In this document: one piece after another, positions 1-40,856 of the stretch
Position numbering within the stretch: the first letter of the stretch is position 1
Layout: the number at the start of each line of letters is the position of its first letter
Origin: an uncultured virus (IMG/VR IMGVR_UViG_3300036770_004343)
Lineage: Duplodnaviria; Heunggongvirae; Uroviricota; Caudoviricetes
Length of the DNA: 64,000 nt
Virus record (IMG/VR): IMGVR_UViG_3300036770_004343
Location: 1 to 64,000 of that record
Strand: one strand, 5' to 3'
Notes under the pieces: model-generated
Database searches by the model: none
What the model was told of the DNA's origin: nothing
Seen by the model: only the letters and a program-made list of their open reading frames with translations
Position numbers and translations under genes: made by a program

Positions 1-863
1 TCTTCTATTTTCTCAACGCCCCAATCAGGATAATCAAATTCACTACCAACCGGTGTAGTGTTCCAATCACTATCAGTTACTTTTATCGATAAATTATTAC
101 CTTTAATAGCTTTAACAACAGCTTTTATACCCATTCCTTTAAATTTTACTTTGTCACCCACTTTGAATTCAACACCGACTTTATCTGCAACAGATGGTTT
201 AGGTGCGGGTGGAGGAGTTTCTTTCTTGGGCTCTTCTTTATCATACAGTTCATTGTATGAAATTATTCCGCTGCCAATTTCATATAAACATTCTTCGGGG
301 TTATATCCGTTGAACTCTATGACTTTCTCATATTGTTCTTTATATGGAAGTACTTTATTTTTATTATAATCCCAGAATGTGACAATAATAGCTTTACCAC
401 TTGGTATTGTACTTTCAATTTGTAAATCTAAATTTTCAGGTGGTTTGCTATCTGTATTGTCTACCTCAAATATTCTACCTTTCGTAATAGGATCTGAATA
501 TTGACTCATTCTACCCAATCCCTTTAGGATATTTTCCAAATCCAAATGACCGCCACCATTACTACTATCCTTTAATCGTTTGATACCTTTTTGAGCCCAA
601 TAATCCAATTGTTCTCTCTTATTAGAATCATACTTTATTTCTGGAGCATCTTCCATTTCTTTGATGTCTTTTAATACATCACCATCATCCGAATAAAATT
701 GTTTTTTGTTGTCACTATATCCAAATGTTGAATTTTTGCCGCTCACATCATCTTTATAAACAAAGAAAGCACATCTATTTGCTGGGGTAGTATAACTATA
801 AGTCTTTCTCTTATAATATACAGTATCAGGATTCTCCAAAAGTAAGTCTCTAAATCTGGTCAT
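1..863 (-). CDS. Hypothetical phage protein, partial (runs off left edge); probable late/virion-associated
   Basis: Own translation: ATG at 863, MTRFRDLLLENPDTVYYK..., open to position 1; ATATTTAT motif 6 nt upstream. Confidence 0.75.
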   Translation of the reverse strand, partial: MTRFRDLLLENPDTVYYKRKTYSYTTPANRCAFFVYKDDVSGKNSTFGYSDNKKQFYSDDGDVLKDIKEMEDAPEIKYDSNKREQLDYWAQKGIKRLKDSSNGGGHLDLENILKGLGRMSQYSDPITKGRIFEVDNTDSKPPENLDLQIESTIPSGKAIIVTFWDYNKNKVLPYKEQYEKVIEFNGYNPEECLYEIGSGIISYNELYDKEEPKKETPPPAPKPSVADKVGVEFKVGDKVKFKGMGIKAVVKAIKGNNLSIKVTDSDWNTTPVGSEFDYPDWGVEKIE

Positions 864-876
864 ATAGTTATAAATA

Positions 877-1050
877 TTAGTCAAACCTACTCTTATGCTT
901 ACTTTTAAAGTGTTTCAACCGTTCCATTATTTCTTCACGTTGTTTATCAGTATAAAACGACCAATCCCTCAACTCTTCCCAAGTACGTCCACATCCTTCG
1001 CATAGTTTATTATCAACTACTACACAGATTCTTTTACACGGGGTTTTCAT
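877..1050 (-). CDS. DUF1289-like small Cys-rich protein (57 aa)
   Basis: Own translation MKTPCKRICVVVDNKLCEGCGRTWEELRDW...; PCxxxC/CxGCxRTxxExxxW pattern. Confidence 0.75.
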   Translation of the reverse strand: MKTPCKRICVVVDNKLCEGCGRTWEELRDWSFYTDKQREEIMERLKHFKSKHKSRFD

Positions 1051-1065
1051 ATTATTTTTTTACAC

Positions 1066-1093
1066 AAAAAAACCCGTTCATTTCTGAACGGGT
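1066..1093 (-). terminator. Rho-independent terminator
   Basis: ACCCGTTCA-GAAA-TGAACGGGT followed by a T tract on the minus strand. Confidence 0.85.
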
Positions 1094-1107
1094 CAATTGA
1101 TTTTACT

Positions 1108-1605
1108 TTAAATGTTTTTTGCTTTTTCTATAATTTCTTTTAACTTTTTACTCTTTTTAGCGTCCATTGCGGCTTTCTTCATTGGTTCTGTTTTGTTGCC
1201 ATCTTTATCCAAATCCAAAAAGTCAGGCTTTGCACCTTCTTCATAACACTCATCACATTCCATATATTCCATCATCTTATCAATATCAGCTTCTTCTAGT
1301 TTTCTACCTACATATGGAGTAAGTATTTTCTTGATTTTACCAAACAAGTCAGCATCACCTTGGTCACCAGCAAATCTGTTTTTGTCACTGTGTTTGTCAA
1401 TTGTCTTGACAAAGGTCTTGGTAATCTTGCCTGGTTCTTCTGATTTTGGAGCTTTTTTAGCAACTGGCTTTTCAGCTTTTGGCTTTTCAACCTTTGGTTC
1501 GGCCTTTGGTTTTTCAGCTTTTTCAGCTTTTTCAGCTTTTTTAACTTCGGTTGCTACTTCTTCGTATACTTCTTGTATAAGTTTTTTTAAATCTGTTTTG
1601 GTCAT
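1108..1605 (-). CDS. Modular Lys/Glu-rich phage protein (KAEK/KPKAE repeats, DLDKDG motif); probable capsid cargo
   Basis: N-terminal MTKTDLKKLIQEVYEE; low-complexity repeat; C-terminal PDFLDLDKDGNKTEPMKKA module. Confidence 0.6.
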   Translation of the reverse strand: MTKTDLKKLIQEVYEEVATEVKKAEKAEKAEKPKAEPKVEKPKAEKPVAKKAPKSEEPGKITKTFVKTIDKHSDKNRFAGDQGDADLFGKIKKILTPYVGRKLEEADIDKMMEYMECDECYEEGAKPDFLDLDKDGNKTEPMKKAAMDAKKSKKLKEIIEKAKNI

Positions 1606-1644
1606 AATAGTATTATATTGATGTTATAGAAATAAATATAACAA

Positions 1645-1944
1645 TCAATTGGTTATAATTTGTTTTTTTATCAAACCGTCATACCATTTTCTACCAATTT
1701 CACTAAATCTATAGTCCCACTTTAATATGTAACGACTTTTTAATTCATTAACCATCGCCGTAGCATATCCTCTTCGACGATGTTCATAACTTATGTTTAT
1801 ATATTCTATACATACAATATCATCATAGCAGTTGACCTTGTAATACTTACAAAAGCCAACAGCATTGCCTTGTTTATTTAAAATTTCACAATTGTATTCG
1901 TCTCGGTTATTGTTGTAACCCAAATACGTGTGAATGAATTTCAT
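1645..1944 (-). CDS. GNAT family acetyltransferase
   Basis: Motif A EHRRRGYAT. Confidence 0.75.
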   Translation of the reverse strand: MKFIHTYLGYNNNRDEYNCEILNKQGNAVGFCKYYKVNCYDDIVCIEYINISYEHRRRGYATAMVNELKSRYILKWDYRFSEIGRKWYDGLIKKQIITN

Positions 1945-1947
1945 AAA

Positions 1948-2640
1948 CTAAGCGTGACACAACCAAGCTTGTATATTAAATCTCTTGTTTTCCCAAGACA
2001 AATCCTTCGGTGCTGTAATTTCACTACAAGCGTGAAACACACTAGATGGAAAAATAGTCAATTGATTGCTGGTCAATGGTAACTTATATGTATTGTTCTT
2101 GTACATAAAGTACTGTTCTCCACCTTTCATTACACTTGGATCTTGTACCAATGTAAGCGCAAATGTAAATGCGTTTTGTTTGTTTACCTCTATGCCATCC
2201 CAAGTCATACCACTAACAGATAAATCACGGTGCCAATTATAATAACCACCGTCGCCATAGTTGATGATATGATACTTATACAAATATCTGTATTTTGAAT
2301 ACGCGTTTAATTCTTCATTTTTAGCGTGGGTTAGAAAATCTAGTGTTCCTTGGTGAAAAATATATTTGCTTAGATTTGATATATAATAACCAAGATCTTG
2401 ATTTTTTTCTTGGTTCTGTTTTTCAAACGGAAGCCAAACATCTTGTCCAGTACACAATGGACTCAATGGTTCATCTGGATTATAAGCAAGTCCATCATTA
2501 TAACCACCACTCCAATGTGGTACACCAAAATGCGGTTTTAATCTAATAAAGTCTTCATATAGTTTTTTTACATAATCTCTGGGAAGAAAATTATCAATTA
2601 CTACAAGAGGAATGGTTTCGTGTTCTACAGGAATATACAT
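1948..2640 (-). CDS. 2OG-Fe(II) oxygenase
   Basis: VIDNFL, WHRD, GGE, IFPSSVFH, C-terminal R. Confidence 0.85.
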   Translation of the reverse strand: MYIPVEHETIPLVVIDNFLPRDYVKKLYEDFIRLKPHFGVPHWSGGYNDGLAYNPDEPLSPLCTGQDVWLPFEKQNQEKNQDLGYYISNLSKYIFHQGTLDFLTHAKNEELNAYSKYRYLYKYHIINYGDGGYYNWHRDLSVSGMTWDGIEVNKQNAFTFALTLVQDPSVMKGGEQYFMYKNNTYKLPLTSNQLTIFPSSVFHACSEITAPKDLSWENKRFNIQAWLCHA

Positions 2641-2653
2641 AACATTTATATTT

Positions 2654-3358
2654 TTAATTATACCAACCAGATACGCTAATTCTTTCTTTGTTTGAATTGT
2701 TGACCACCTGAGTTACACAATGAGGTGCAACTCCAGCGGTTACTTCAAAAATAACCAATTTATTAAAAGATGGATTAATAGCTCTAATGTTGTTTTTGTC
2801 TCTCAAATCCAAATATAACCCACCAAAATCAGGATTCCAATCTTTAGTTAAATGACACACAAATGCCAGCTTGCCATTTACATCATCTGTATGATTGCTT
2901 AAAAAACATTTTTCAGAATAACGACTTACAAATGTTTTATCACCCGTCGTAATATTTAGATCTGTTACACTATTGATAAAGTCTATCATTTCTTTACCGT
3001 TAAAGAAAGCCATTGTTTCATTATAAACAGTGCAATTGAACTTTTCCATTACCCCAGGCATTGTTTTAAAGAAAAAGTAACTAAACAAATTGTTATCTCT
3101 GGCATTACAAGCGTGTTGATACGCTTGTTCCATAACATATCTGTTGGTAGGAACATTTTGCCACCATTCCCAATCACCTTCATATCTAAGAGATGGCATA
3201 TATGTAGCACACCAATGTTCTTTATTCATCTCAGTTGTATAGTACTTGTGTAACTTTTCAGCCCATTCTTCTGTCAAAAAGTTATCTATTACAACCCGTC
3301 TGTTTTTGATAAATTCTTCTTTATAAGCAGAAGCATTGATATTTTTTATATTAATCAT
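2654..3358 (-). CDS. 2OG-Fe(II) oxygenase (prolyl-hydroxylase-like)
   Basis: HTD, W-x-P-x-FGG, FNKLVIF, PHCV, RISVSGW. Confidence 0.85.
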   Translation of the reverse strand: MINIKNINASAYKEEFIKNRRVVIDNFLTEEWAEKLHKYYTTEMNKEHWCATYMPSLRYEGDWEWWQNVPTNRYVMEQAYQHACNARDNNLFSYFFFKTMPGVMEKFNCTVYNETMAFFNGKEMIDFINSVTDLNITTGDKTFVSRYSEKCFLSNHTDDVNGKLAFVCHLTKDWNPDFGGLYLDLRDKNNIRAINPSFNKLVIFEVTAGVAPHCVTQVVNNSNKERISVSGWYN

Positions 3359-3361
3359 ATA

Positions 3362-3595
3362 TTAGCCATTTAAAACATTTTTGACACATCCTTTTGATAG
3401 AGCTAAAATTTCATCAAGTGTTTCCTTAACTCTAATAGATCCACCATTCTGGTGAGATGTATTAATAACAGTGTGCTTACCACTAGGACTTGGTTCCATA
3501 CTAACCGCTCTATCCAAATTAAATAAAATTGGAATATAAGTGCGGGTATTATCGTGATTCAGATCCAACTGATTTAGTTTTACAAAATGTGCCAT
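3362..3595 (-). CDS. FlbD/SwrD-like small protein
   Basis: FVKL...FNLDRAVSME...TVI...VKETLDEI pattern. Confidence 0.5.
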   Translation of the reverse strand: MAHFVKLNQLDLNHDNTRTYIPILFNLDRAVSMEPSPSGKHTVINTSHQNGGSIRVKETLDEILALSKGCVKNVLNG

Positions 3596-3605
3596 ATTTT
3601 CTATT

Positions 3606-3634
3606 AATATATAACGAGTATTTTAGTGGGTCAA
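3606..3634 (-). promoter_or_regulatory. sigma70-type promoter
   Basis: TTGACC-N17-TATATT upstream of the 3595 start. Confidence 0.55.
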
Positions 3635-3669
3635 GTAAAATATGAAAATATAATAACTACTTATAGTTA

Positions 3670-4065
3670 ATGGCAGTTACTAATACATTTGGATCAGTTT
3701 GTGAAACTTGGAACTCATATTGTTTCACTTGGGGCGATTGTATTGCTTCTGTTGTTGAAGTTTTGGAGGGAGGAGCTAGAAATCCTCAAGAATGGGGAGA
3801 TCATCCTTTTGATAATTATGAAGATCAACAAAAGGCATTGCTTGATTTTCAATTAAAGAATCCTCAAAAAACAGCTAAACTTGTTGACATATTATTAAAG
3901 TGTCAAAATAAAAAATATAAGAAAACTATTGAAATACCCGACAAAAAGATATTTATAAAAGTAAATGACGTAAACTTTATTATTGATACACTTAATGAGG
4001 TAGGCGTTGACATAAAAAATATAAGAAAGTATAACGACGATGAGCTACAAAATTTACTTGGATAA
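3670..4065 (+). CDS. Hypothetical protein
   Basis: 131-aa ORF, CTACTTAT motif 5 nt upstream. Confidence 0.65.
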   Translation: MAVTNTFGSVCETWNSYCFTWGDCIASVVEVLEGGARNPQEWGDHPFDNYEDQQKALLDFQLKNPQKTAKLVDILLKCQNKKYKKTIEIPDKKIFIKVNDVNFIIDTLNEVGVDIKNIRKYNDDELQNLLG

Positions 4066-4555
4066 AGATTTTGCATTTGAATGTGAAGCAGCAATTAAAA
4101 ATGCATCATACAAAAACAGTTCCGCTCGCTTGATCCTCGAAAGCGACGACGTAAATCTTGTGTTTTATGGCAACGTAGATAAAAATACAATCAATGTACC
4201 AATCAAAAGTTTAAAGAAATACTTTACAGAAAAAGATAGTGCAAAAATAAAATTGGAAGTTATTGTAGAAAATCAATTGGTTACTCCGTGGGAAAGTGAA
4301 GTTGAATTTGATAACTACAATAAGGTGGAGATCAAAGAAATCAAAAATATCAAACAAAACCCATTGGTGGAAATTAAAATAAAAGAAGAACCAAAAGAAG
4401 AAGTTATCGTTGAAAAAACAAAACCTGTGGATAGTCCAAAACAAAGTCTTTTAAAGAACATCAACGAAGAAATCAAAAAGATAAAAGCAAACGGAAAAAT
4501 AAATAAAGAGGCAAAAAAAGAATTAATTAAAAATCTATTACAAAAAGGTTTATAA
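4040..4555 (+). CDS. Hypothetical protein, possibly structural
   Basis: 171-aa ORF with beta-rich N-terminus and charged tail. Confidence 0.65.
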   Translation: MSYKIYLDKDFAFECEAAIKNASYKNSSARLILESDDVNLVFYGNVDKNTINVPIKSLKKYFTEKDSAKIKLEVIVENQLVTPWESEVEFDNYNKVEIKEIKNIKQNPLVEIKIKEEPKEEVIVEKTKPVDSPKQSLLKNINEEIKKIKANGKINKEAKKELIKNLLQKGL

Positions 4556-4570
4556 TTAATATAATATGAT

Positions 4571-5122
4571 ATGCCAGTTTTTCCATCACAAAATCTAAAT
4601 ACACAAAAAATTTGTGAGTCATATCCAAAATTATTACAAGTATATAGCAGTAGCTTAGTTCTCGACGGTACAGGTAGTTTAATAAAATTTTTAAATCTTA
4701 CATCAAGTTATGCACTCAATTGTAACTGTCCATCAGGATCGGGCGGTACACAACTATATACAGGCAGTACTTATCCAATTACAAGTAGTTGGGCATTATA
4801 TACACTGACTAGTAGTTATATACAAGTTACAGGTGTAAGTTATCCAGTAAGAAAAATCAATAACAACTACACTATAGTAAAAACCACTGATTATACTATT
4901 CTATGTGATGCAACTAGTGGTAGCTTTGATGTTAAATTGCCAAATCCATCGGGTAACACAAACATTTATAACATAAAAAAAATAGATCACACAGGTCATT
5001 GTGTAAACGTGATGGTAACAAATGCTTCTTATATAGACTATGATGTTACTCAAAGTATTTGTCATAGAGGTACAAATATGACCATACAAAGTGATGGTAC
5101 AAACCAATATTGGATATTATAA
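4571..5122 (+). CDS. Putative virion structural/fibre-associated protein
   Basis: SSYA/SSWA/GS motifs; C-terminal DYTILCDATSG...LP...SDGTNQYWI domain typical of fibre proteins. Confidence 0.6.
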   Translation: MPVFPSQNLNTQKICESYPKLLQVYSSSLVLDGTGSLIKFLNLTSSYALNCNCPSGSGGTQLYTGSTYPITSSWALYTLTSSYIQVTGVSYPVRKINNNYTIVKTTDYTILCDATSGSFDVKLPNPSGNTNIYNIKKIDHTGHCVNVMVTNASYIDYDVTQSICHRGTNMTIQSDGTNQYWIL

Positions 5123-5125
5123 TTT

Positions 5126-6358
5126 ATGTCATACTTCGAAAAAACAAGAATATTATCAGCAGACAGTCCAAGCATCGATGCTTTCGGTAAATGGCGTGTT
5201 AGTCAACCAACCACATTATTCGATGGCAAACAAATAGTTGATAGCGGCAGTTTCTACTTTGATATCAAAACAACATCTGGCGGTACTGTAACGTGGAATA
5301 GTGGTAGCGCTCAAAGCACAATGGCTGTAACTTCTACAAGTGGTAGTAGAGCTATAAAACAAACCAAAAGAATATTTATATATCAGCCAGGTAAAAGTCA
5401 ACAAATCATTTGCACAGGTAAATTTGATGGCAGAGTTGACGGCATAAAGAAAAGTATGGGTAGTTTCGATGATGATAATGGATATTTCTTTCAAACAAGT
5501 GGTAGCAGTTTTGGTATAGTATTAAGAAAAACAATCAATGGTGTAAGAACAGATACATTTGTAAGTCAAAGCACTTGGAACTTAGATAAAATGAATGGTA
5601 CAGGTCCATCTGGTAATACCTTGGATGTAAGTAAAGCTCAAATTTATACAATGGATTATGAATGGTTAGGTGTGGGTAGAATTCGTTATGGAGTTGTACA
5701 AAAAGGTATATTGATATATGTACACGAAATAAACAACTATAATAGTCTAGAAACAGTTTACTTGCGCAATCCTAATTTACCCATAAGATATGAAATAAGT
5801 ACCCACAAAAATACCACAACTGGCAGTTTGATGACACAAATATGTAGCACAGTTATAAGTGAAGGTGGTTTTGATAATACAGGCAAAAGAGTGGTCATTA
5901 CAAGTAATAATGGTGCTACTATTGGTGCAAGTGAATATGACGCTGTATTGTTTATAAGATATAATAGTGCTACGTCTAAATGTGCTCAAATCATACCTGA
6001 ACAATTAGATTTATTGATAAAGCCTGGCAATAGTAGCACCTTTGCCGGAAGATGGGAGTTATTAGTTAACCCAACGGTAACAAATGCCGTAACCTATAAC
6101 AACGTTAGTGGATCGGTAGTAACACAAGTGGGTGTAGTAAGTGCTGGAAATGTTATAATAGACCCAGGCACAATTATAGCAACTGGATATTTTGCTGGTA
6201 CATCAGCTAATAGTGTGGCGCAAATGGTAACATTGGATCCATATTATGGTTTGGGTAGAAAAATAGACAATAGCAGCGATGTATTAGCAATTGCTATAAA
6301 AACAATAGATAATACATACACAGTATATCCATCATTAATAGTTAGAGAATTAACATAA
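5126..6358 (+). CDS. Putative virion structural protein (beta-sandwich/lectin-like)
   Basis: DAFGKWRVS-P-TLFD, YQPGKS, YEWLGVG motifs; Ser/Thr/Gly-rich. Confidence 0.6.
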   Translation: MSYFEKTRILSADSPSIDAFGKWRVSQPTTLFDGKQIVDSGSFYFDIKTTSGGTVTWNSGSAQSTMAVTSTSGSRAIKQTKRIFIYQPGKSQQIICTGKFDGRVDGIKKSMGSFDDDNGYFFQTSGSSFGIVLRKTINGVRTDTFVSQSTWNLDKMNGTGPSGNTLDVSKAQIYTMDYEWLGVGRIRYGVVQKGILIYVHEINNYNSLETVYLRNPNLPIRYEISTHKNTTTGSLMTQICSTVISEGGFDNTGKRVVITSNNGATIGASEYDAVLFIRYNSATSKCAQIIPEQLDLLIKPGNSSTFAGRWELLVNPTVTNAVTYNNVSGSVVTQVGVVSAGNVIIDPGTIIATGYFAGTSANSVAQMVTLDPYYGLGRKIDNSSDVLAIAIKTIDNTYTVYPSLIVRELT

Positions 6359-6471
6359 AATATAAAGATATATAAACCAATATTTATTGCTATAAGCACT
6401 ACAAGAAACAACCACACGAATAAAAATACTAGAAAATAGAATCTCACAACTAGAATCTAAACAATAACCAC

Positions 6472-6505
6472 AAAAACCCCACCAAATTAATGATGGGGTT
6501 TTTTT
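6472..6505. terminator. Probably bidirectional Rho-independent terminator
   Basis: AAAAACCCCA...TGGGGTTTTTTT. Confidence 0.75.
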
Positions 6506-6572
6506 ATTAAATAATTTTAACGATTTTTCTACTTTTTTTCTACTTTGATATATTCAATCACTATTTATTAGT

Positions 6573-6716
6573 ATGGGAAGAAAACAAAAATATATCACAG
6601 ATGAAGAAAAATTAAACGCACGCCGTGAAAGACAAATGCGTTATTATTTCAATAATCAACAAGTTAAAAAAGAAAAAGCATTAGAAAGATATTACAAAAA
6701 GAAAGGGGAAAAATGA
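6573..6716 (+). CDS. Small basic protein (47 aa), translationally coupled to the endonuclease
   Basis: Own translation MGRKQKYITDEEKLNARRERQMRYY...; ATGA overlap with 6713. Confidence 0.7.
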   Translation: MGRKQKYITDEEKLNARRERQMRYYFNNQQVKKEKALERYYKKKGEK

Positions 6717-7519
6717 AACTCTATTTGATGATAAAAACACATAATATAACCGGCAAAAAATATTTATGCAAAAAACAAGCTAGAAGTGATGTAGAGGCTG
6801 TTAAATACACAGGATCAGGTCTTAAATGGAAACCACATTTAAAAGAATTTGGCAAAAATTTTACTACTGAAATTTTGTTTGTTTGTCCAATTGAAAACAA
6901 GAAGGAATTTAGAAAAATAGCTATAGATTATAGTTATAAACTTAATATTTTAAGTGATTCAAATTGGATGAATATGATATTAGAAGATGGCGGTGGTGGT
7001 TCAACATCAGAAACAAATGGTAGTAAAGGTAAAAAATGGATTTATAAAGATGAACAAAGAAAAAGTGTATGTCAAAGTGTATTGCAAGAGTATCTATCAA
7101 ATGGTTGGACTCTTGGATTTCCAGAAAAATTTAAAAAAATCATTTCTGATTATAGCAAAGGAAAAATTCCGTGGAATAAAAATAAAAGTTTAAAACTTCC
7201 ACATGAATATACATCAAGAATTTATAAAAAGAAATATAATACAAATAAAAATAAAAAGAATGAATATACTAGTGAACTTAGAAGTTTAATTGCAAAAGAA
7301 TGTTTAAATAGACCAGAAGTATTATTGAAATTTAAACAACCAAGAAAATCCCCAATTACAGCAAAAAATGTAACCACGAATGAAATTAAAACTCTTGGTA
7401 GAAGACAATGGCATGATGTTCACCAAATAGATTATAGGAAACTTTTGAAGGGATATACATCAAAAGGATGGAAGATGGTAGTGGTACCGGGACTTGAACC
7501 CGGAACTTCACCCTTATAA
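6713..7519 (+). CDS. Free-standing GIY-YIG (Seg-like) homing endonuclease
   Basis: KLYLMIKTHNITGKKYL...YTGSG, later N; NUMOD-like PWNK repeat; sits beside the tRNA array. Confidence 0.75.
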   Translation: MKLYLMIKTHNITGKKYLCKKQARSDVEAVKYTGSGLKWKPHLKEFGKNFTTEILFVCPIENKKEFRKIAIDYSYKLNILSDSNWMNMILEDGGGGSTSETNGSKGKKWIYKDEQRKSVCQSVLQEYLSNGWTLGFPEKFKKIISDYSKGKIPWNKNKSLKLPHEYTSRIYKKKYNTNKNKKNEYTSELRSLIAKECLNRPEVLLKFKQPRKSPITAKNVTTNEIKTLGRRQWHDVHQIDYRKLLKGYTSKGWKMVVVPGLEPGTSPL

Positions 7520-7552
7520 GGAGTGTACTCTAACCACTTGAGTTATACCACT
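7476..7552 (-). tRNA. tRNA-Ile (UAU)
   Basis: AGTGGTA/TACCACT acceptor, CACTC-CTTATAA-GGGTG anticodon arm, TTCAAGT T-loop, encoded CCA. Confidence 0.9.
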
Positions 7553-7561
7553 ATCAAAAAA

Positions 7562-7641
7562 TGGAGCGGTGTCTCGGACTTATTTATTCACCGGCCTTCT
7601 CACTGGAATGTGAACGTGCTCCTCATAGACACTAACACCGC
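7562..7641 (-). tRNA. Aberrant tRNA-Gly-like (UCC in a 6-nt loop; non-canonical T arm)
   Basis: GCGGTGT/ACACCGC acceptor + U73 + CCA; TTCAC-ATTCCA-GTGAG; no TTC T-loop. Confidence 0.6.
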
Positions 7642-7649
7642 ATTAAAAT

Positions 7650-7722
7650 TGGAGCGGGTCCGAACTTTGCATTTCGCCTTTTAGTCTGGTAGACTAACGT
7701 GCTCTCTTTACACTTGACCCGC
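7650..7722 (-). tRNA. Aberrant tRNA-Gly-like (ACC anticodon)
   Basis: GCGGGTC/GACCCGC acceptor + U73 + CCA; TTAGT-CTACCAG-ACTAA; D-loop lacks GG; 4-bp T stem CGAA/TTCG. Confidence 0.65.
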
Positions 7723-7732
7723 ATCTTAAATC

Positions 7733-8035
7733 AAAATAGGAAGGACTAATGATTACCTCCAAGTTTCAGAATCACGACTGGTTATTCATCCACAGTCCAC
7801 ACGGTTAATTACTCCTTGTGTTAATGACTGATGGGATTTGTTTTTCCCACAACGGGCTACGATTTATCATTTATATTTTAGCTACGATCCCGATACGCTC
7901 AAATTCAAGGTTGTACGACCTCAAATTCTCCATAGATTTACCCTCCATAACTCTTACTCCAACCAATATACAACGTTTTTCAACGCCATATATTGTGCGT
8001 TACAACTAAACTAATCGTTGTTCCGCCACTATCTT
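7733..8035 (-). ncRNA. Candidate ~300-nt structured ncRNA, family unassigned
   Basis: Ends pair (AAGATAG/CTATTTT); internal helices CAATATAT/GTATATTG with a GAAA tetraloop, TTTGAGGT/ACCTTGAA, TGGGA/TCCCA, GACTG/CAGTC, TGATT/AATCA; lies within the tRNA transcript. Confidence 0.6.
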
Positions 8036-8038
8036 AAA

Positions 8039-8051
8039 TTGTTAAAGAACT
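8039..8051 (-). promoter_or_regulatory. boxA-like antitermination element
   Basis: AGTTCTTTAACAA versus rrn boxA TGCTCTTTAACA. Confidence 0.55.
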
Positions 8052-8052
8052 A

Positions 8053-8186
8053 TTGAAAAAGTTGATGGGACTTGAACCCACATACATAACGTCTATTTGT
8101 AGTTATATCGTTAATCGGCGGTTTTCCCCGTGTCTACAACTTTGGGTACCGACCTCCTGCTACGCCATTCGCTACAACCTTCTCAA
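8053..8186 (-). ncRNA. tRNA-like RNA with the anticodon arm replaced by a ~75-nt insert
   Basis: 12-bp terminal stem, TA linker, D-loop with GG, GTGGG-TTCAAGT-CCCAT T arm; no encoded CCA. Confidence 0.65.
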
Positions 8187-8194
8187 TTGAAAAA

Positions 8195-8472
8195 TGGTAG
8201 GCGTGAGTGGATTCGAACCACCGCTTTACAGATTTTCGTACCACTATAATTTTCATTACACATTTCTGTTTTGTGGTCTGGACTTTCTCTTCATCATAAC
8301 ATTTCTGTTTTAGATGTTTGCCGTTAAGTCTCTACACCTTCTCATTTCTGAGCTTGGCTCGGGATTGGCAGTTAAGCTTTCCCCGAATTTGACAAATTCT
8401 ACTTTAGAGATTTCTCTCTAAGCACTCAATTTACGCTAAAGTCTGTTGACTCTTCCGCTGGTCTACACGCCC
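8195..8472 (-). tRNA. tRNA-Leu (UAA), intron-containing (exons 8439-8472 and 8195-8236), short variable loop
   Basis: GGGCGTG/CACGCCT acceptor, spliced loop ACAGA-CTT^AAAA-TCTGT, TTCGAAT T-loop, CCA. Confidence 0.85.
8237..8438 (-). ncRNA. Group I intron (IC3-like, ~202 nt, no ORF) in the tRNA-Leu(UAA) anticodon
   Basis: P1 ACTT/GAGT with U.G at the splice site; core AAATTCGGGGAA, AATCCCGAG, GTAGAGACT, AAGAGAAAGTCC; terminal omega-G. Confidence 0.9.
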
Positions 8473-8513
8473 ATTTAAATTACTTACAAAGAACTATTAC
8501 TTACTACTCTTTC

Positions 8514-8541
8514 ATCTTACCACATCTTACTTACTTGTCAA
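8514..8541 (-). promoter_or_regulatory. sigma70-type promoter
   Basis: TTGACA-N16-TAAGAT with TG extended -10. Confidence 0.7.
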
Positions 8542-8561
8542 ACAAGTTTTTCAGAAAAAAA

Positions 8562-8645
8562 TGGTAGGGATGGAGGGACTTGCACCCCCACGGTTTTACC
8601 CACGGCTTTTTGAGAGCCGCATGTCTTCTGTTCCATCACATCCCC
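8562..8645 (-). tRNA. tRNA-Leu (CAA)
   Basis: GGGGATG/CATCCCT, CGGCT-CTCAAAA-AGCCG, long variable arm, T-loop TGCAAGT, CCA. Confidence 0.85.
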
Positions 8646-8655
8646 GTTTTTAAAA

Positions 8656-8749
8656 TGGTGGTTCCGCCCGGATTCGAACCGAGACCGTGCTCAAATCTAG
8701 AGCTTATCAACGTTATAAGCGTTGCGTTCTACCGTTAAACTACGGAACC
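8656..8749 (-). tRNA. tRNA-Ile (UAU) with a long variable arm
   Basis: GGTTCCG/CGGAACC, CAACG-CTTATAA-CGTTG, 24-nt variable region with GCTC-TAGATTT-GAGC hairpin, CCA. Confidence 0.85.
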
Positions 8750-8755
8750 ACTAAA

Positions 8756-8834
8756 TGGTAGCGGGGACAGGATTTGAACCTGTGACCTCCTGGTTATGAG
8801 CCAAGCGAGCTGATCCGGGCTGCTCCACCCCGCA
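8756..8834 (-). tRNA. tRNA-fMet-like (CAU)
   Basis: T1:T72 mismatch, GCGGGG stem, CTTGG-CTCATAA-CCAGG, TTCAAAT T-loop, CCA. Confidence 0.85.
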
Positions 8835-8841
8835 AATTGTT

Positions 8842-8854
8842 TTGTTAAAGAACT
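8842..8854 (-). promoter_or_regulatory. boxA-like element
   Basis: AGTTCTTTAACAA just downstream of a promoter. Confidence 0.55.
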
Positions 8855-8865
8855 AACTAAAAATT

Positions 8866-8893
8866 ATCTTATCACACATTGATGTTTTGTCAA
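8866..8893 (-). promoter_or_regulatory. sigma70-type promoter
   Basis: TTGACA-N16-TAAGAT. Confidence 0.7.
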
Positions 8894-8990
8894 CATCTAA
8901 AATCGTCGCCGGTCTTTTAATTGGCGCTTTAATCCTCTGGTGGGGAACCAACTCAAGTGTCCTATTAATCGGGTATTCTCCGGGCGTAAA

Positions 8991-9062
8991 TGGTTGGAAC
9001 GGTGGGTGCTGCCCCCACTTAAACTGGCTTATGAAACCTGTTTCTTTGCTGAAAGCGCTCCA
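8991..9062 (-). tRNA. Aberrant CAU-anticodon tRNA-like gene
   Basis: TGGAGCG/CGTTCCA + A + CCA; D arm CTTT-CAGC-AAAG without the 8-9 linker; loop TTCATAA; T-loop GGCAGCA. Confidence 0.6.
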
Positions 9063-9069
9063 ATTAAAA

Positions 9070-9146
9070 TGGTTGCTGAAGCGTAGGAATCGCACCTACT
9101 TAATGAGTGGTTATGAGCCACCCCCAGATCTAACCTGCCGCCAGCT
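9070..9146 (-). tRNA. Aberrant CAU-anticodon tRNA-like gene (initiator-like 1:72 mismatch)
   Basis: GGGTGG-CTCATAA-CCACTC 6-bp anticodon stem, GTAGG-TGCGATT-CCTAC, bulged acceptor, CCA. Confidence 0.6.
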
Positions 9147-9156
9147 ATTAAATTGT

Positions 9157-9288
9157 GTTGGTTTCGATAATACACGGAGGTTTATTTCAACGAACTAGCG
9201 TTTTTTATTGACTCACAATTATCATTTTTTTCTCAGGTTTGTACGCTTTTCAGCGTTCCATCAATCTGATACTCTATTTTCCACCAAC
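9157..9288 (-). ncRNA. Candidate ~130-nt structured RNA
   Basis: GTTGGT/ACCAAC closing stem, ACGCT-GAAA-AGCGT, TCAG/CTGA, TGATAAT/ATTATCG. Confidence 0.45.
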
Positions 9289-9362
9289 TAAAATTATCAA
9301 AAGAACAAATTAAAAATTGTGTTGGGTGTGTTTATTGAATACTCTATCCACCCAACAAACAG

Positions 9363-9391
9363 AGTATACCATACGCTAACCCCGCAACCAA
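9363..9391 (-). promoter_or_regulatory. Extended -10 promoter
   Basis: TTGGTT-N17-TATACT with TG. Confidence 0.5.
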
Positions 9392-9487
9392 GAAGTTTTT
9401 TAAGAGATCTTCCATACTCTAGGGGTGTTATGGTTTAACGCCCTCCACCAATCAGTTTTATCTTCTGGATAACTGATCAACCAGTAA

Positions 9488-9562
9488 TGGTAGAGCCACA
9501 GAGAATCGAACTCTGATTACTGCCTTGAAAGGGCGGTGTCCTGGCCGTTAGACGATGACTCC
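9488..9562 (-). tRNA. tRNA-Glu (UUC)
   Basis: GGAGTCA/TGGCTCT, CCGCC-CTTTCAA-GGCAG, TTCGATT, CCA. Confidence 0.92.
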
Positions 9563-9569
9563 GTTAAAT

Positions 9570-9645
9570 TGGTGGGACCGGACGGACTTGAACCGTCAAC
9601 CAATTCGTTAAAAGCGAACTGCTCTGCCAATTGAGCTACGATCCC
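9570..9645 (-). tRNA. tRNA-Lys (UUU)
   Basis: GGGATCG/CGGTCCC, GTTCG-CTTTTAA-CGAAT, TTCAAGT, CCA. Confidence 0.92.
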
Positions 9646-9653
9646 ATTAAAAT

Positions 9654-9666
9654 TTGTTAAAGAACT
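9654..9666 (-). promoter_or_regulatory. boxA-like element
   Basis: AGTTCTTTAACAA between the promoter and tRNA-Lys. Confidence 0.55.
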
Positions 9667-9678
9667 TATTACAAAATC

Positions 9679-9706
9679 ATCTTACCACACATTCTTAACT
9701 TGTCAA
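9679..9706 (-). promoter_or_regulatory. sigma70-type promoter
   Basis: TTGACA-N16-TAAGAT with TG. Confidence 0.7.
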
Positions 9707-9710
9707 GTAT

Positions 9711-9818
9711 TTCTTTGTTCTTTGTTGGTGACCCCCTTCGGTTAAAGGCCGAGGCAGTTCCGCCATACGTAGATGTTCTAGAGGAGTGCTTCTCCCACCG
9801 TGCTTAAAGAACAAAGAA
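9711..9818 (-). ncRNA. Candidate ~110-nt multibranched sRNA with a 13-bp terminal inverted repeat
   Basis: TTCTTTGTTCTTT/AAAGAACAAAGAA; GC-rich interior; own promoter. Confidence 0.5.
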
Positions 9819-9839
9819 TCGTTTACTTACTACTTCTTT

Positions 9840-9867
9840 ATCTTAACATTCAATTTTCAAAGATCAA
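9840..9867 (-). promoter_or_regulatory. sigma70-type promoter
   Basis: TTGATC-N16-TAAGAT. Confidence 0.55.
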
Positions 9868-9935
9868 GAACTTTCTTTCAAAAGTTTTGAGGTAAAATAT
9901 AAATATAATCAAATATTAGTAAATTACCGAAAAAG

Positions 9936-10011
9936 TGGTGTCCCCGCCAGGAATTGAACCTGGACCAGAGAGGTAGAAGCTCTCTGCTCTATCCATTTAA
10001 GCTACGAGGAC
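9936..10011 (-). tRNA. tRNA-Arg (UCU)
   Basis: GTCCTCG/CGGGGAC, GAGAG-CTTCTAC-CTCTC, TTCAATT, CCA. Confidence 0.92.
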
Positions 10012-10018
10012 ACTGAGA

Positions 10019-10351
10019 TTACTTACCGTTATCAAGTTCTTTACGAAGAGCTTTACCAAGTTCAGTTAGCTGAAACAGTGGTTCGCCGTCTTCGTTATGA
10101 CCGGATACATATAATAGACCATCTTCTACCATTTTGTCAACTGTTTCTTTAACTTCTGACAACACAAGTTCGTTATAGATTACTTCTGCTTCAAACTCAT
10201 TGCATTCAAGTTCTTTCATAATTACTTGAATACAAGCTTCTTTTTCCTCGACTTTGACTTGTTCTTCAACTTTATCAACGTCTAAGTTGGAACAATGACT
10301 GAGCAGATCATCGATTGATCCGGTAAAGTTGTCTGTGATATATTTATCCAT
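10019..10351 (-). CDS. Hypothetical protein with a winged-helix-like C-terminus
   Basis: MVEDGLL...FQLTELGK. Confidence 0.6.
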   Translation of the reverse strand: MDKYITDNFTGSIDDLLSHCSNLDVDKVEEQVKVEEKEACIQVIMKELECNEFEAEVIYNELVLSEVKETVDKMVEDGLLYVSGHNEDGEPLFQLTELGKALRKELDNGK

Positions 10352-10365
10352 TGTATGGTCTTTTA

Positions 10366-10656
10366 TTAGGCTACCCAGGCGAATTCTACGTTCTTGTAAT
10401 AACGAACGGATCGCTTTGCGATGCTGTCAAGTGACTTACTGACATTGTGGGGAACACGAACATTCTTACCCCAACCATTTTCAGCTCGGCCTAGAGCAAT
10501 AGCAAATCCCTTGCGTTTATCAAAACGATCACCAGCCTTTGTATTGGTATAACTCCAACCAACACGAACTGAGTCATTAATAACTGTGGCTACCACATAA
10601 CCACGGGGTTGACCATTGCGGTCACGTACCAACTGCTTGAGTGTAGTGTCTTTCAT
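10366..10656 (-). CDS. Conserved hypothetical phage protein (start likely ATG 10656)
   Basis: VGWS...DRFDKRKG..IALGRA motif; this start avoids overlap with the upstream ORF. Confidence 0.65.
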   Translation of the reverse strand: MKDTTLKQLVRDRNGQPRGYVVATVINDSVRVGWSYTNTKAGDRFDKRKGFAIALGRAENGWGKNVRVPHNVSKSLDSIAKRSVRYYKNVEFAWVA

Positions 10657-10681
10657 ATAACTTGTTTTTAAATGTTTTGGT

Positions 10682-10864
10682 TTACTTTCCTTCGACGTAT
10701 CGGAGTAGATCACGATTTGGTTCGACCCCAATCTTTTCGTCTACAGTCTGCTTGATAGCAGCTTTGTAATAATACTGTGCGTATAGATCTGTTAGTTGTA
10801 GTTTGCGTTCAGCAATTTTTTCTTTGAGGTTATTAATAACTGTTTGAGTTGTCTTCGTCTTCAT
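10682..10864 (-). CDS. Hypothetical protein
   Basis: 60-aa ORF in a co-directional run. Confidence 0.55.
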   Translation of the reverse strand: MKTKTTQTVINNLKEKIAERKLQLTDLYAQYYYKAAIKQTVDEKIGVEPNRDLLRYVEGK

Positions 10865-10988
10865 ACTTTGAATTGTAACGTGATGGCTTTACTTCAGTAT
10901 TTTGCCATTTCTTGTTAGTCTTTTTATTTGCTTTGTTGCGCCAATTTCCTTCGTTGCGTGAACGACGATCTTTGAATGACTTTCCCAT
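10833..10988 (-). CDS. Small basic hypothetical protein (51 aa)
   Basis: Own translation MGKSFKDRRSRNEGNW... Confidence 0.55.
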   Translation of the reverse strand: MGKSFKDRRSRNEGNWRNKANKKTNKKWQNTEVKPSRYNSKYEDEDNSNSY

Positions 10989-11017
10989 ATACTACTTTTA
11001 AAAATAAATAGTGTTAG

Positions 11018-11051
11018 AAAAAGGGATTAATAAGTTTTTTTATTAACCCCT
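11018..11051 (-). terminator. Probable terminator
   Basis: AGGGGTTAATA/TATTAATCCCT + T tract. Confidence 0.5.
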
Positions 11052-11066
11052 CAATCTTTGAACTGT

Positions 11067-11345
11067 TTAATTTGCAGAAGTCTGAGACGATTCAGCAGTA
11101 GTAGTTGTTGACTCAACAGCAGGAGTTGCGTCGTAGGTATACACGATACTTGGCTTACCACGCTTACCGGTCTTCTGTGATCCACTAATCTTGTATCGAC
11201 CAGCGGTTACATTACGCTTAACGTGCATCCGAATTGTCGGAGCCTTAACGTTGGCGTTGATGTTAATCAGATCAACAATAGTGAAATTGCGATCAGTGAT
11301 TTCGTTTACTGCGGTTGCCTTACGGCCTGTCTTGTTCTTGTTCAT
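11067..11345 (-). CDS. Small winged-HTH-like DNA-binding protein
   Basis: FTIVDL...TIRMHV...GKRGKPSIVY. Confidence 0.55.
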   Translation of the reverse strand: MNKNKTGRKATAVNEITDRNFTIVDLININANVKAPTIRMHVKRNVTAGRYKISGSQKTGKRGKPSIVYTYDATPAVESTTTTAESSQTSAN

Positions 11346-11384
11346 ATTTTTTATTTTTTGTTAATGTTAACCGACTACAAATTC

Positions 11385-11413
11385 ATCTTACCACATACTT
11401 TAAACAATGTCAA
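11385..11413 (-). promoter_or_regulatory. sigma70-type promoter
   Basis: TTGACA-N17-TAAGAT with TG. Confidence 0.75.
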
Positions 11414-39899: not shown

Positions 39900-40856
39900 C
39901 TATTTATTTAACGATTTTATAATTTTAGCAATACAAGCCATAAACGTAATTTCTTTGTCTACAACCATACTACTTTGATATACATATTCTGCGATTTCTA
40001 TAATAATTAATGTTTCTTTACCAACCGCATATTCATTGACTTTGGAATATAGTTCTGTGTAAAGTTCATCAAAAGATTTTGTACCAGCATCCGCAATTAA
40101 CTGTCGGATTTCATTAAAAGACTTAGTGTTTGTCTTACTATTCTTTAGTAATTCAATTAACTTGGTCTTAAGTTCAAAGTTTGCACTTTGATTTTTGATC
40201 AACTTCAAAGTTCCATTTGTAGAACTCTGTTGAATAAAATTCACAATCTTACGAATGTCCGGATAAAAACTATCAACAGAAGTCTTCAAATCAGCAAGTT
40301 CATACTTAATAGATTCTTTATCCAAAATGTTCTTAGTATACAAAGCTACATCCTTTTTAGCAGGAGGTTCGATCTGAAACACTTGACAACGGCTAATCAA
40401 TGGAGAAATAATCTTTTCCACATAATTACAAGTTAAAATAAACCGAGTTGTCTTACTATACGTCTCCATCAAATTGCGAAGTGACGCTTGTGAATTGGTA
40501 GACATATAATCTGATTCATCCAAAATAACAATCTTAAGATCATTAAAACCCATAGCAGATGCAAATGGTCTAATCTTGTCACGAACGAAATCTACACCAG
40601 TGTTATCAGATGCATTAACATACATCACATCACAAGGAATGTTGTTTGTTAAAATCTTTGCAACCGTAGTCTTGCCAGTACCAGCATTACCATAAAACAA
40701 CAAATGTGGAATATCTTTTTTGGAAATAAAATCTTTAAGAATACTTTTAAGTTGTTCATTGCAAATATAATTGTCTAGTACGTTGGGACGATACTTTTCA
40801 GCCCAAAGACTATGTTGTTCTGTATTAACAGACTTCTCTTCTTCAAAAAAACTCAT
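39900..40856 (-). CDS. Clamp loader subunit (RFC-small/gp44-like AAA+)
   Basis: WAEKYRP, GNAGTGKTT, NASD, LDESD, SRC. Confidence 0.93.
   Translation of the reverse strand: MSFFEEEKSVNTEQHSLWAEKYRPNVLDNYICNEQLKSILKDFISKKDIPHLLFYGNAGTGKTTVAKILTNNIPCDVMYVNASDNTGVDFVRDKIRPFASAMGFNDLKIVILDESDYMSTNSQASLRNLMETYSKTTRFILTCNYVEKIISPLISRCQVFQIEPPAKKDVALYTKNILDKESIKYELADLKTSVDSFYPDIRKIVNFIQQSSTNGTLKLIKNQSANFELKTKLIELLKNSKTNTKSFNEIRQLIADAGTKSFDELYTELYSKVNEYAVGKETLIIIEIAEYVYQSSMVVDKEITFMACIAKIIKSLNK

Follow-up and report, generated by a model that had tools for sequence, protein, structure and literature searches.

A structured RNA expressed from the tRNA operon of an uncultured phage and its probable kinship with manA RNAs

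Introduction

ROOL and GOLLD are large RNAs of phages and prophages which often lie near tRNAs and form RNA-only multimers, and the tRNA cluster of phage T4 gives rise to stable non-tRNA RNAs, 'species 1 and 2', that are co-transcribed with the tRNAs and released by tRNA processing. Here, we describe a structured RNA of about 305 nt that is encoded within the tRNA operon of an uncultured tailed phage, on the minus strand of a 64,000-nt stretch of DNA (positions 1 to 64,000 of IMG/VR record IMGVR_UViG_3300036770_004343) which we refer to as the window. The described family closest to it is manA, a riboswitch candidate from marine metagenomes, T4-like cyanophages and two gamma-proteobacteria, where it is located in the 5' untranslated regions (UTRs) of mannose/fructose, nucleotide, ibpA and photosynthesis genes and is drawn with a loop pairing labelled 'pseudoknot?' (Weinberg et al. 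2010, PMC2864571). A manA copy scoring 100.6 bits is reported in cyanophage S-CREM1 (Zheng et al. 2023, PMC9964418). According to a 2026 cryo-electron microscopy preprint, manA RNAs assemble in vitro into decamers, octamers and an icosahedral-like cage of 60 subunits, all of which consist of pentamers, and the pentamers are held together by kissing loops between molecules (L5-L7', L8-L9', or L3-L8') as well as by a GNRA-receptor contact (bioRxiv 10.64898/2026.07.01.735769). manA has been a riboswitch candidate without a ligand since 2010 and, according to the preprint, forms cages in the test tube. In our search of the manA literature, we found no paper on manA-type RNAs in tRNA operons or on their expression.

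The RNA described here resembles manA in its occurrence in phages with T4-type replication genes, its closing stem, its 5' module, its 3' hairpin of the form GGUAAU...AAUCC and a short hairpin or boxA-like leader in front. It differs from manA in length (255-310 nt in the window family versus 192 model positions), in the replacement of the three-hairpin central junction of manA by a larger set of helices (P5-P12), in habitat (freshwater, river and subsurface instead of marine) and in genomic setting (tRNA operons instead of the 5' UTR of a metabolic gene). With ROOL and GOLLD, for which self-assembly has been reported, it has in common that it is a large, ornate RNA near phage tRNA genes; both of these are much longer, and in the comparison by covariance model, the only one made, neither family gave a match with an E-value of up to 10. 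The T4 species 1 and 2, likened here by description only, are likewise stable non-tRNA RNAs from a phage tRNA cluster, albeit smaller. The reading that we favour, and for which we see about even chances, is that of a stand-alone, trans-acting manA-type RNA. Such an RNA would be transcribed inside the phage tRNA operon behind a boxA-like leader, be excised close to the base of its terminal helix P1, fold into 13 helices around multi-helix junctions and serve in trans as an architectural RNA whose copies bind one another. The putative connectors between the molecules would be loop L10 (AAUGAU) with loop L13 (AUCAUU), the self-complementary loops L12 (UAAUUA) and L9 (GUAC), and the GNRA-type loop L4.

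Structure and conservation of the RNA

The minus strand of positions 7733-8035 is predicted to fold with -80.0 kcal/mol (z -3.21), which was reached by none of 100 shuffled sequences; the respective values for the plus strand are -53.3 kcal/mol and z -1.19, and 10 of 100 shuffles fold equally well. The minus strand is also the coding strand of all seven tRNAs detected by ARAGORN between 7476 and 10011. A secondary structure of 90 base pairs in 13 helices (P1 to P13, Table 1) was curated by hand on a MAFFT alignment of 45 distinct sequences of the long type of the RNA (type A, see below). In this alignment, 95.8% of the cells (45 sequences, 90 pairs) are paired, compared to 36.3-44.1% if the partners are slid by one to three columns, and 34 of the 90 pairs have changed on both sides, compared to 17.6 +/- 1.9 in shuffles. 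None of 500 shuffles reached any of five structure measures; related sequences can beat shuffles even without structure, but the slid control and the many double changes make kinship an unlikely source of this signal. The preliminary description of this DNA, which was made from the sequence alone, had proposed a highly structured RNA with pairing ends and at least five internal helices, several with G-U pairs and one capped by GAAA. All of this is borne out by the alignment: the ends pair as P1, many of the 13 helices contain G-U pairs, and the GAAA cap is that of P4. Together with the RNA-library data below, these results leave us practically certain that this is a real, conserved, structured and expressed RNA.

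In the curated structure, the closing stem P1 leads into a 5' domain (P2-P3), after which comes P4, a stack of P5 to P8 encloses a junction with P9 to P12, and P13 abuts P1. Compensatory changes are also seen across the types of the RNA. The strands of P1, compared by eye, change together from AUAG/CUAU to UUUG/CAAA and, in two outliers, to CAGGG/CCCUG (L135) and GUGAG/CUCAC (L036). P2 occurs as GCG/CGC, ACG/CGU, ACC/GGU and AUU/AAU, and the outer part of P10 as CGGG/CCCG, CGAC/GUCG, CGAG/CUUG and CAGGA/UCCUG. Five of the ten pairs of P6 differ on both sides between subtypes; for P6 and P7 taken together, 7 of 13 pairs have changed on both sides with 97.2% of the cells paired. Among the unpaired parts, the joiner UGAAUAA is retained in types A, B and C (UGAAUC in L036), and the loop of P4, which reads GAAGA in the shorter relatives, lies in a UGAARAA common to all types. 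P12 is missing from the short type, for which we found no convincing equivalent of P8 and whose centre is only roughly modelled.

Relatives were collected in five ways. The two flanking proteins led to 34 loci of related phages (35 with L001), and blastn detected the RNA in 19 of these 35 loci at 78.7-100% identity. A 19-letter bait taken from the 3' hairpin P13 gave 30 loci in viral contigs, 29 of which are members (by blastn or by R1, a covariance model built from type A; L049 and L060 by identity to L046). The sole non-member is Acinetobacter phage ME3 (L064), which has only a 19-21-nt hairpin word in common and is weakly matched (16.5 bits, E 0.0021) by R2, a second covariance model built from a trimmed alignment of the short type only. 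The same bait gave 84 loci in metagenomes, 81 of which contain the RNA or a part of it cut off by the end of the contig; in bacterial and archaeal genomes, it gave six bacterial loci and no member, three of them with the hairpin word only and three without any match. A bait from the 5' domain, by which the 3' hairpin is not selected for, yielded 50 viral loci with 28 members. The members come from freshwater, river and subsurface samples and amount to 66 distinct full-length copies, which fall into the long type A (289-308 nt, including the copy in the window), the short type B (254-261 nt) and the two outliers L135 and L036, all lengths counting 8 nt of flank on the 5' side and 10 nt on the 3' side. 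R1 matches the window at 7731-8061 with 364.7 bits, the type B copies with 34.8-73.1 bits (E 2.7e-10 to 1.5e-23) and the outliers with 153.5 (L135) and 20.3 bits (L036). R2 in turn matches the window copy at 7736-8035 with 43.6 bits (E 1.7e-11), and these reciprocal matches tie the short type to the copy in the window. No copy turned up among cultured phages when the operon and a short-type copy were compared by blastn with 50,697 phage records. Neither R1 nor the manA model matched Microcystis phage Mel-JY01, an empty answer that shows little.

Short-type copies have no tRNA-shaped neighbour and are located behind their own promoter-like site or beside other tRNAs. Downstream of them on the same strand, Pistol ribozymes scoring above the Rfam threshold are found in 9 of 18 loci (e.g. 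L043:1540-1607, L080:739-804 and L153:216-281), at a distance of 7-8 nt from the RNA in three loci and of about 160 nt in four, in the latter case with a conserved stretch in between. tmRNA genes occur near the RNA in 6 of the 18 short-type loci.

Relationship to manA

No family of Rfam 15 reaches its threshold on the RNA, and none matches it with an E-value of up to 10 in a search of 2.8 kb. The Rfam model of manA (RF01745, gathering cut-off 55.2 bits) matches the diverged copies, however weakly: in all six sources searched, the match runs end to end and is co-terminal with the RNA, with scores between 16.8 and 32.5 bits (L043, 32.5 bits, E 3.3e-5; L040, 31.7 bits, E 5.6e-5; L036, 31.0 bits, E 9.7e-5; L038, 28.6 bits, E 4.8e-4; L046, 22.2 bits, E 0.037; L135, 16.8 bits, E 1.6). 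When the elements were searched alone, the E-values were 6.5e-7 for L043 and 2.2e-6 for L036. The parts common to the manA model and the relatives are a small 5' hairpin, P1, the module GUGAC-GAAUAA-hairpin-UAAgGU and a 3' hairpin of the form GGUA...A..AAUCC. The first of these corresponds to the boxA-like leader, which in the relatives aligns to model positions 1-19, the 5' hairpin of manA. In manA, P1 is followed by GUGaCUGAAUAA-hairpin-UAAgGu; in the window, AGAUAG/CUAUUU is followed by GUGGCGGAACA-P3-UAACGCA, and the corresponding GUGACGGAAUAAAC...UAACGU of the short type is aligned to the model at high posterior probability. At the other end, GGAGGUAAUCAUUAGUCCUUC (7760-7740) of the window stands for ugGGUAuacAguAAUCCca of manA beside the 3' strand of P1, and all capital consensus positions of this hairpin are kept in the relatives. 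By eye, 13 of the 14 positions of GUGaCUGAAUAAaC are retained in the manA alignments of the relatives. In addition, the last two hairpin loops are complementary to each other in both families. Based on these shared parts, a common origin with manA is probable, and we think that the RNA is best read as a variant, not a member, of manA that is enlarged, uncatalogued, of freshwater and placed in tRNA operons.

A number of results weigh against this kinship. The window copy itself is matched by RF01745 with 9.5 bits only, in a local match restricted to 7740-7761 (model positions 161-182), and the gathering score is reached by none of 20 loci. The central hairpins of manA, cagGUGGUGcug and ccgacuaACCAgucgg, have no counterpart in the window family: the centre of the model is skipped in the alignments, with inserts of 109 nt in L043 and of 66+50+111 nt in L036 (109 to 227 bases), and the loop pair GUGGUG / ACCA was not seen in the window copy. 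Our own models also failed on a bona fide manA, the copy at 142837-143034 of phage P-SSM2 between regA and a gene annotated purL, which served as positive control and scores 181.6 bits with RF01745. R1 gave no match with an E-value of up to 10 at this locus, and R2 with filters switched off gave 1.3 bits (E 2.5), ranked ninth among noise, the default filters failing as well. The manA link is therefore one-directional.

On these grounds, the RNA could be an independent class whose likeness to manA, i.e. the terminal stem, a short 5' motif and a hairpin, is convergent or due to a shuffled module. The sub-threshold scores, the failure of both R1 and R2 on bona fide manA and the unalignable central domain would all agree with such an origin, but it fits poorly with E-values down to 6.5e-7 on several diverged copies, with matches that in each case end together with the RNA, with the retention of the conserved positions of the manA 3' hairpin and of GUGaCUGAAUAAaC, and with the complementarity of the last two loops in manA itself. 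We consider an independent origin improbable. The preliminary description had suggested a new or poorly known class of large phage noncoding RNA and had named a strong hit to a described family as the outcome that would speak against novelty. The Rfam covariance search that it called for yielded no such hit, as no family of Rfam 15 reaches its gathering score, and gave in its place a weak, significant and one-directional link to manA. 'Poorly known' has thus held up, and this is probably not a new RNA class.

Other families were also considered. A likeness of GGGUAAAUCUAUGGAG to S-domain motifs suggested RNase P RNA, of which neither the P4 motif nor a model match with an E-value of up to 10 was found. 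ARAGORN detected no tmRNA, including the permuted form, and the only match of the tmRNA model is a T arm at 8066-8080, outside the RNA. The absence of tmRNA and RNase P signatures noted in the preliminary description is in line with these searches, in which no model match fell inside the RNA. A group I or group II intron was rejected as the RNA is not flanked by exon halves and has different upstream neighbours in different relatives, the group I match at 8256-8448 being outside the RNA. SRP, GOLLD, ROOL, HEARO and OLE models gave no matches.

Representation in RNA libraries and genomic setting

Of 24 sequencing runs listed, 20 contain part of a 1.1-kb stretch around the RNA; 14 DNA runs have at least half of its words, and six are RNA libraries from freshwater or rivers. 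Contigs of four RNA runs (X15 to X18, from at most four studies) were aligned to the window, and their depths were summed per bin. Contig depth, a single figure per contig which sums related organisms and is unable to rank the parts of a gene, was 23-63, 75-1,481, 882-6,302 and 834-11,401 over the RNA (7733-8028) in X15, X16, X17 and X18, respectively, compared to 9-28, 1.6-2.1, 3-122 and 4.6-10.7 over the downstream tRNA-shaped genes (7585-7732), 12-64, 0-22.5, 1.2-114 and 0-40.5 over the intron-bearing tRNA (8177-8500), and 0 in all four runs both on the protein-coding side (7400-7547) and at 8066-8176. These limits of the measure count against any stronger use of it, and we thus claim only that a piece with the boundaries of the RNA stands out strongly in RNA libraries, which is what would be expected of a stable processed RNA. 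The contigs cover 7733-8065, with joints at 8036-8038 and 7733-7734, and these ends match the predicted P1. The extent of 7733 to 8035 given in the preliminary description is only a few bases off, as contigs of all four libraries stop at about 8036-8040 and at 7733. The contigs also suggest that the abundant mature RNA includes little of the boxA-like leader.

In three of the four RNA runs, contigs link the 3' end of the RNA to its 5' leader, with a joint that reads, in RNA sense, ...CCUUCCUAUUUG/AAUUUAAGAUAGUGGCGG... (the slash marking the joint). The depths of these contigs were 37.9 (X16), 26 (X17) and 287.9 plus 25.1 (X18); they represent a minor species and have short flanks on one side. 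Tandem DNA copies were rejected as the source, since none of 213 DNA loci carries the junction. The joint may stem from a circular form, from a concatemer or from a template switch at the 7-nt AAUUUAA that leader and trailer have in common. A circular form is conceivable because P1 brings the two ends next to each other at its foot.

The position of the RNA bears on the function first proposed for manA. Upstream, the RNA is preceded by a tRNA with encoded CCA, or a tRNA-like gene, and by the boxA-like leader, and downstream it is followed by tRNA-shaped genes; hence, tRNA-type genes flank it on both sides where manA precedes a protein-coding gene, and the sugar-nucleotide genes of the window are 6-20 kb away. 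With such an arrangement, the RNA cannot be a classical 5'-UTR switch. A riboswitch or attenuator acting in cis could instead control read-through into the downstream tRNA-shaped genes. It would be in keeping with the original proposal for manA in 5' UTRs (PMC2864571), with the U-rich run CUAUUUUGAUUU after the 3' strand of P1 and with the P-SSM2 manA, which lies 15 nt before a gene and is followed by U7. The genes downstream, however, are RNAs and not mRNAs, a terminator scan found none at the 3' end of the RNA, and the contig depth of the RNA is tens to thousands of times that of the genes which it would control. Moreover, what follows within 7-8 nt in 3 of the 18 short-type loci is a Pistol ribozyme and not a coding gene. 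Regulation in cis is therefore very improbable in our view.

Loop complementarities and mode of action

The hexamer AAUGAU in loop L10 is complementary to AUCAUU in loop L13. The only lineage with a changed L13 (L185/L200), which was retrieved with the 5'-domain bait, has GUCAGG in this loop and UCUGAU at the homologous site of L10, such that six of six pairs are retained; if the partners are swapped between this lineage and the standard L10-L13, four of six pairs remain by hand count. In the manA of P-SSM2, by eye, UACAG in the 3' loop likewise faces CUGUA in the loop of the preceding hairpin. L10 and L13 correspond to L8 and L9 of the preprint as mapped by position only. Two further loops are able to pair with a copy of themselves. 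The hexamer of L12 is self-complementary in all 44 copies that have P12 (UAAUUA in 40, UAAUUG in 3 and, by a double change, CAAUUG in 1), and the central tetramer of L9 is palindromic in 48 of the 63 distinct copies with this loop (GUAC in 25, GGCC in 18 and GAUC in 5, which differ by double changes). Other loop pairings, of L9 or L3 with other loops, gave nothing consistent by eye. As these loop features are the kinds of contact that hold the manA assemblies of the preprint together, they point to a self-associating architectural RNA. That the loops pair between molecules and not within one is a tentative proposal, to which we give somewhat less than even weight.

Several findings tell against self-association or lessen its support. 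The covariation of L10 and L13 comes from one lineage and has no power to separate an intramolecular pseudoknot from an intermolecular kiss. At least five of six L10-L13 pairs can be formed within a 115-nt stretch in all 66 copies, which is easy by chance and carries little weight. In 15 of the 63 copies, the tetramer of L9 is no palindrome (GUUC in 13, GGAC in 2), and the evidence for self-assembly of manA itself is in vitro and from the preprint only. Of 24 related loci, 14 (L014, L018-L021, L023, L025-L029 and L031-L033) lack the RNA within 10 kb of the SpoU gene. In the lineage of L048, L016 and L010, a deletion has removed the 5' third of the RNA as well as the 3' half of the tRNA upstream of it, and in L083, only the last ~60 nt are left behind a tRNA. 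The absence in these loci and the partial deletions in two lineages count against an essential role and indicate that the RNA is dispensable for some relatives.

The main competitor to an architectural RNA is a monomeric stable RNA in which L10 and L13 form an intramolecular pseudoknot and which binds a protein, tRNAs, tRNA-shaped RNAs or the ribosome as a decoy, a sponge or a cofactor of tRNA handling. Structure, abundance and position in the tRNA operon fit a monomer equally well, type-A copies nearly always adjoin odd tRNA-shaped genes with encoded CCA, the manA loop pairing is drawn as 'pseudoknot?' within one molecule by Weinberg et al. 2010 (PMC2864571), and non-palindromic variants of L9 exist. 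What such a monomer accounts for less well is that the short type occurs without a tRNA-shaped neighbour and that an L12 which is self-complementary in 44 of 44 copies has no obvious use. On balance, we regard a monomer as rather unlikely, although clearly less so than an independent class or a switch in cis.

The self-associating, trans-acting RNA that we prefer extends the manA family to freshwater phages, to a larger architecture that was missed by standard annotation and to a tRNA-operon setting at very high depth. The freshwater reach, the architecture, the operon position and the RNA depth together argue that manA-type RNAs are trans-acting stable RNAs. In a stronger form of this reading, which we deem unlikely, the RNA would not be a linear monomer in infected cells: its ends would be joined head to tail, its copies would be locked via L10-L13, L12 and L9 into a closed RNA-only particle, or both. 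If this were true, the circle or particle would rank among the most abundant products of phages in freshwater plankton and would be the first sign of manA-type cages in nature and the first circular noncoding RNA of a tailed phage. The connector loops, which can be mutated, and the head-to-tail joint offer concrete handles.

Leader, operon and neighbouring genes

The boxA anti-termination leaders of rRNA operons have the consensus UGCUCUUUAACAA in E. coli and UGUUCUUUGAAAA in Gram-positive bacteria. As in these leaders, a boxA-like word stands ahead of RNA genes in an untranslated operon; different from them, the leader stretch of the window corresponds to a hairpin in the model of the manA family. 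The boxA-like element that the preliminary description had seen ahead of the RNA is confirmed (Table 1). The motif GTTCTTTRWMA occurs five times in the window compared to 1.06 expected; four of the occurrences precede RNA genes and are located on the minus strand between 8040 and 9665. There, GUUCUUUAACA is found 10-25 nt ahead of the RNA genes, and three of the four copies are located behind promoter-like sites of the form TTGACA-16-TAAGAT. Judged by the above consensus, the boxA-like words and the promoter-like sites would fit an rrn-style anti-termination of an untranslated operon.

Table 1 Positions of the RNA, its helices and associated features in the window.
Feature	Position	Strand	Remarks
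Promoter-like sites with boxA-like words, three repeats	9706-9655, 8893-8843, 8541-8484	-	TTGACA-16-TAAGAT with TG before the second hexamer, then GTTCTTTAACA or GTTCTTTGTAA; each ahead of RNA genes
boxA-like leader	8051-8039	-	AGUUCUUUAACAA; directly upstream of the RNA; conserved in the 5' flank of type-A copies
RNA element, ~305 nt	8038-7731	-	ends approximate, 5' near 8036-8040 and 3' near 7731-7734
P1	8034-8029 with 7739-7734	-	AGAUAG with CUAUUU; closes the molecule; 97% of cells paired
5' domain	8026-7997	-	GUG-GCG-GAA-(P3 hairpin)-UAA-CGC-A; P2 8026-8024 with 7999-7997, P3 8021-8017 with 8006-8002
P4 hairpin	7995-7964	-	14 bp, GAAA cap; 6 of 14 pairs changed on both sides; 93.5% of cells paired
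Long-range stack, 5' strands	P5 7959-7956, P6 7954-7945, P7 7942-7940, P8 7937-7930	-	partners 7764-7761, 7777-7768, 7782-7780, 7795-7788
Long-range stack, 3' strands of P8, P7, P6, P5	7795-7761	-	include conserved joiner GAAUA (UGAAUAAC)
P9 hairpin	7928-7901	-	11 bp; 6 of 11 pairs changed on both sides; loop CGUACA 7917-7912 with self-complementary GUAC 7916-7913
P10	7892-7853	-	CGGG/CCCG, bulge, CUA/UAG; large loop holds AAUGAU 7871-7866 (L10)
P11 hairpin	7852-7828	-	UUG-UGGG ... CCCA-U-CAG; 99.7% of cells paired; mostly invariant, 1 pair changed on both sides
P12 hairpin	7820-7798	-	loop AGUAAUUAA with self-complementary UAAUUA 7811-7806; 4 of 7 pairs changed on both sides
P13, 3'-terminal hairpin	7760-7740	-	GGAGG-UAAUCAUUAGU-CCUUC; loop core AUCAUU 7753-7748 (L13); 100% of cells paired, an invariance partly by construction as two scans for relatives used P13 as bait
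tRNA-shaped gene, downstream neighbour	7722-7650	-	encoded CCA; loop CUACCAG; without normal D and T loops
Second tRNA-shaped gene	7641-7562	-	encoded CCA; Gly-like loop AUUCCAG; without the usual D-loop GG and T-loop

The Gly-like tRNAs which had been placed downstream of the RNA correspond to the two tRNA-shaped genes of Table 1. The first of them folds as a cloverleaf with z -3.25 and the second has z -1.61; both went undetected by ARAGORN and by the Rfam tRNA model. A gene of this kind follows nearly every type-A copy, and all of the 12 commonest 3' flanks (81 locus occurrences) run into one.

The window is part of the genome of a large uncultured phage. It encodes a family B DNA polymerase (42049-44700), a clamp loader (39900-40856), a virion protein and many sugar-nucleotide genes, and the nearest record, an IMG/VR contig of 94.8 kb, is rated as 41% complete. 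The closest isolate by DNA polymerase is Microcystis phage Mel-JY01 with 42% identity, followed by T4-type gp43 proteins with about 28%.

Further upstream in the operon, a group I intron (Rfam, 74.8 bits, 8256-8448 on the minus strand) interrupts the tRNA at 8196-8475. RNA contigs carry the spliced joint 8439/8236, which skips 202 nt and gives the anticodon loop CUU/AAAA with the anticodon UAA, as well as a joint that goes back by 196 nt from 8429 to 8234, as of an intron circle; the relative L015 carries an intron-less allele of this tRNA. Between this tRNA and the leader, 8179-8063 on the minus strand has an acceptor stem AAGGUUG/CAACUUU with a G3:U70 pair, about 85 nt in between and the T arm at 8066-8080 that is weakly matched by the tmRNA model (9.2 bits). 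It may be a stripped-down tmRNA-like gene or an intron-bearing tRNA-like gene; it is present only in records identical to the window, and its fold gives no support (z +0.43). A lysine-rich open reading frame of 268 amino acids (6713-7519, plus strand), without a match in Pfam or PHROG, overlaps the convergent tRNA-Ile (7476-7552, minus strand) by 44 nt. The tRNA at 8656-8749 on the minus strand has the anticodon UAU and an extra arm of about 21 nt, and is thus a second UAU tRNA besides the one at 7476-7552.

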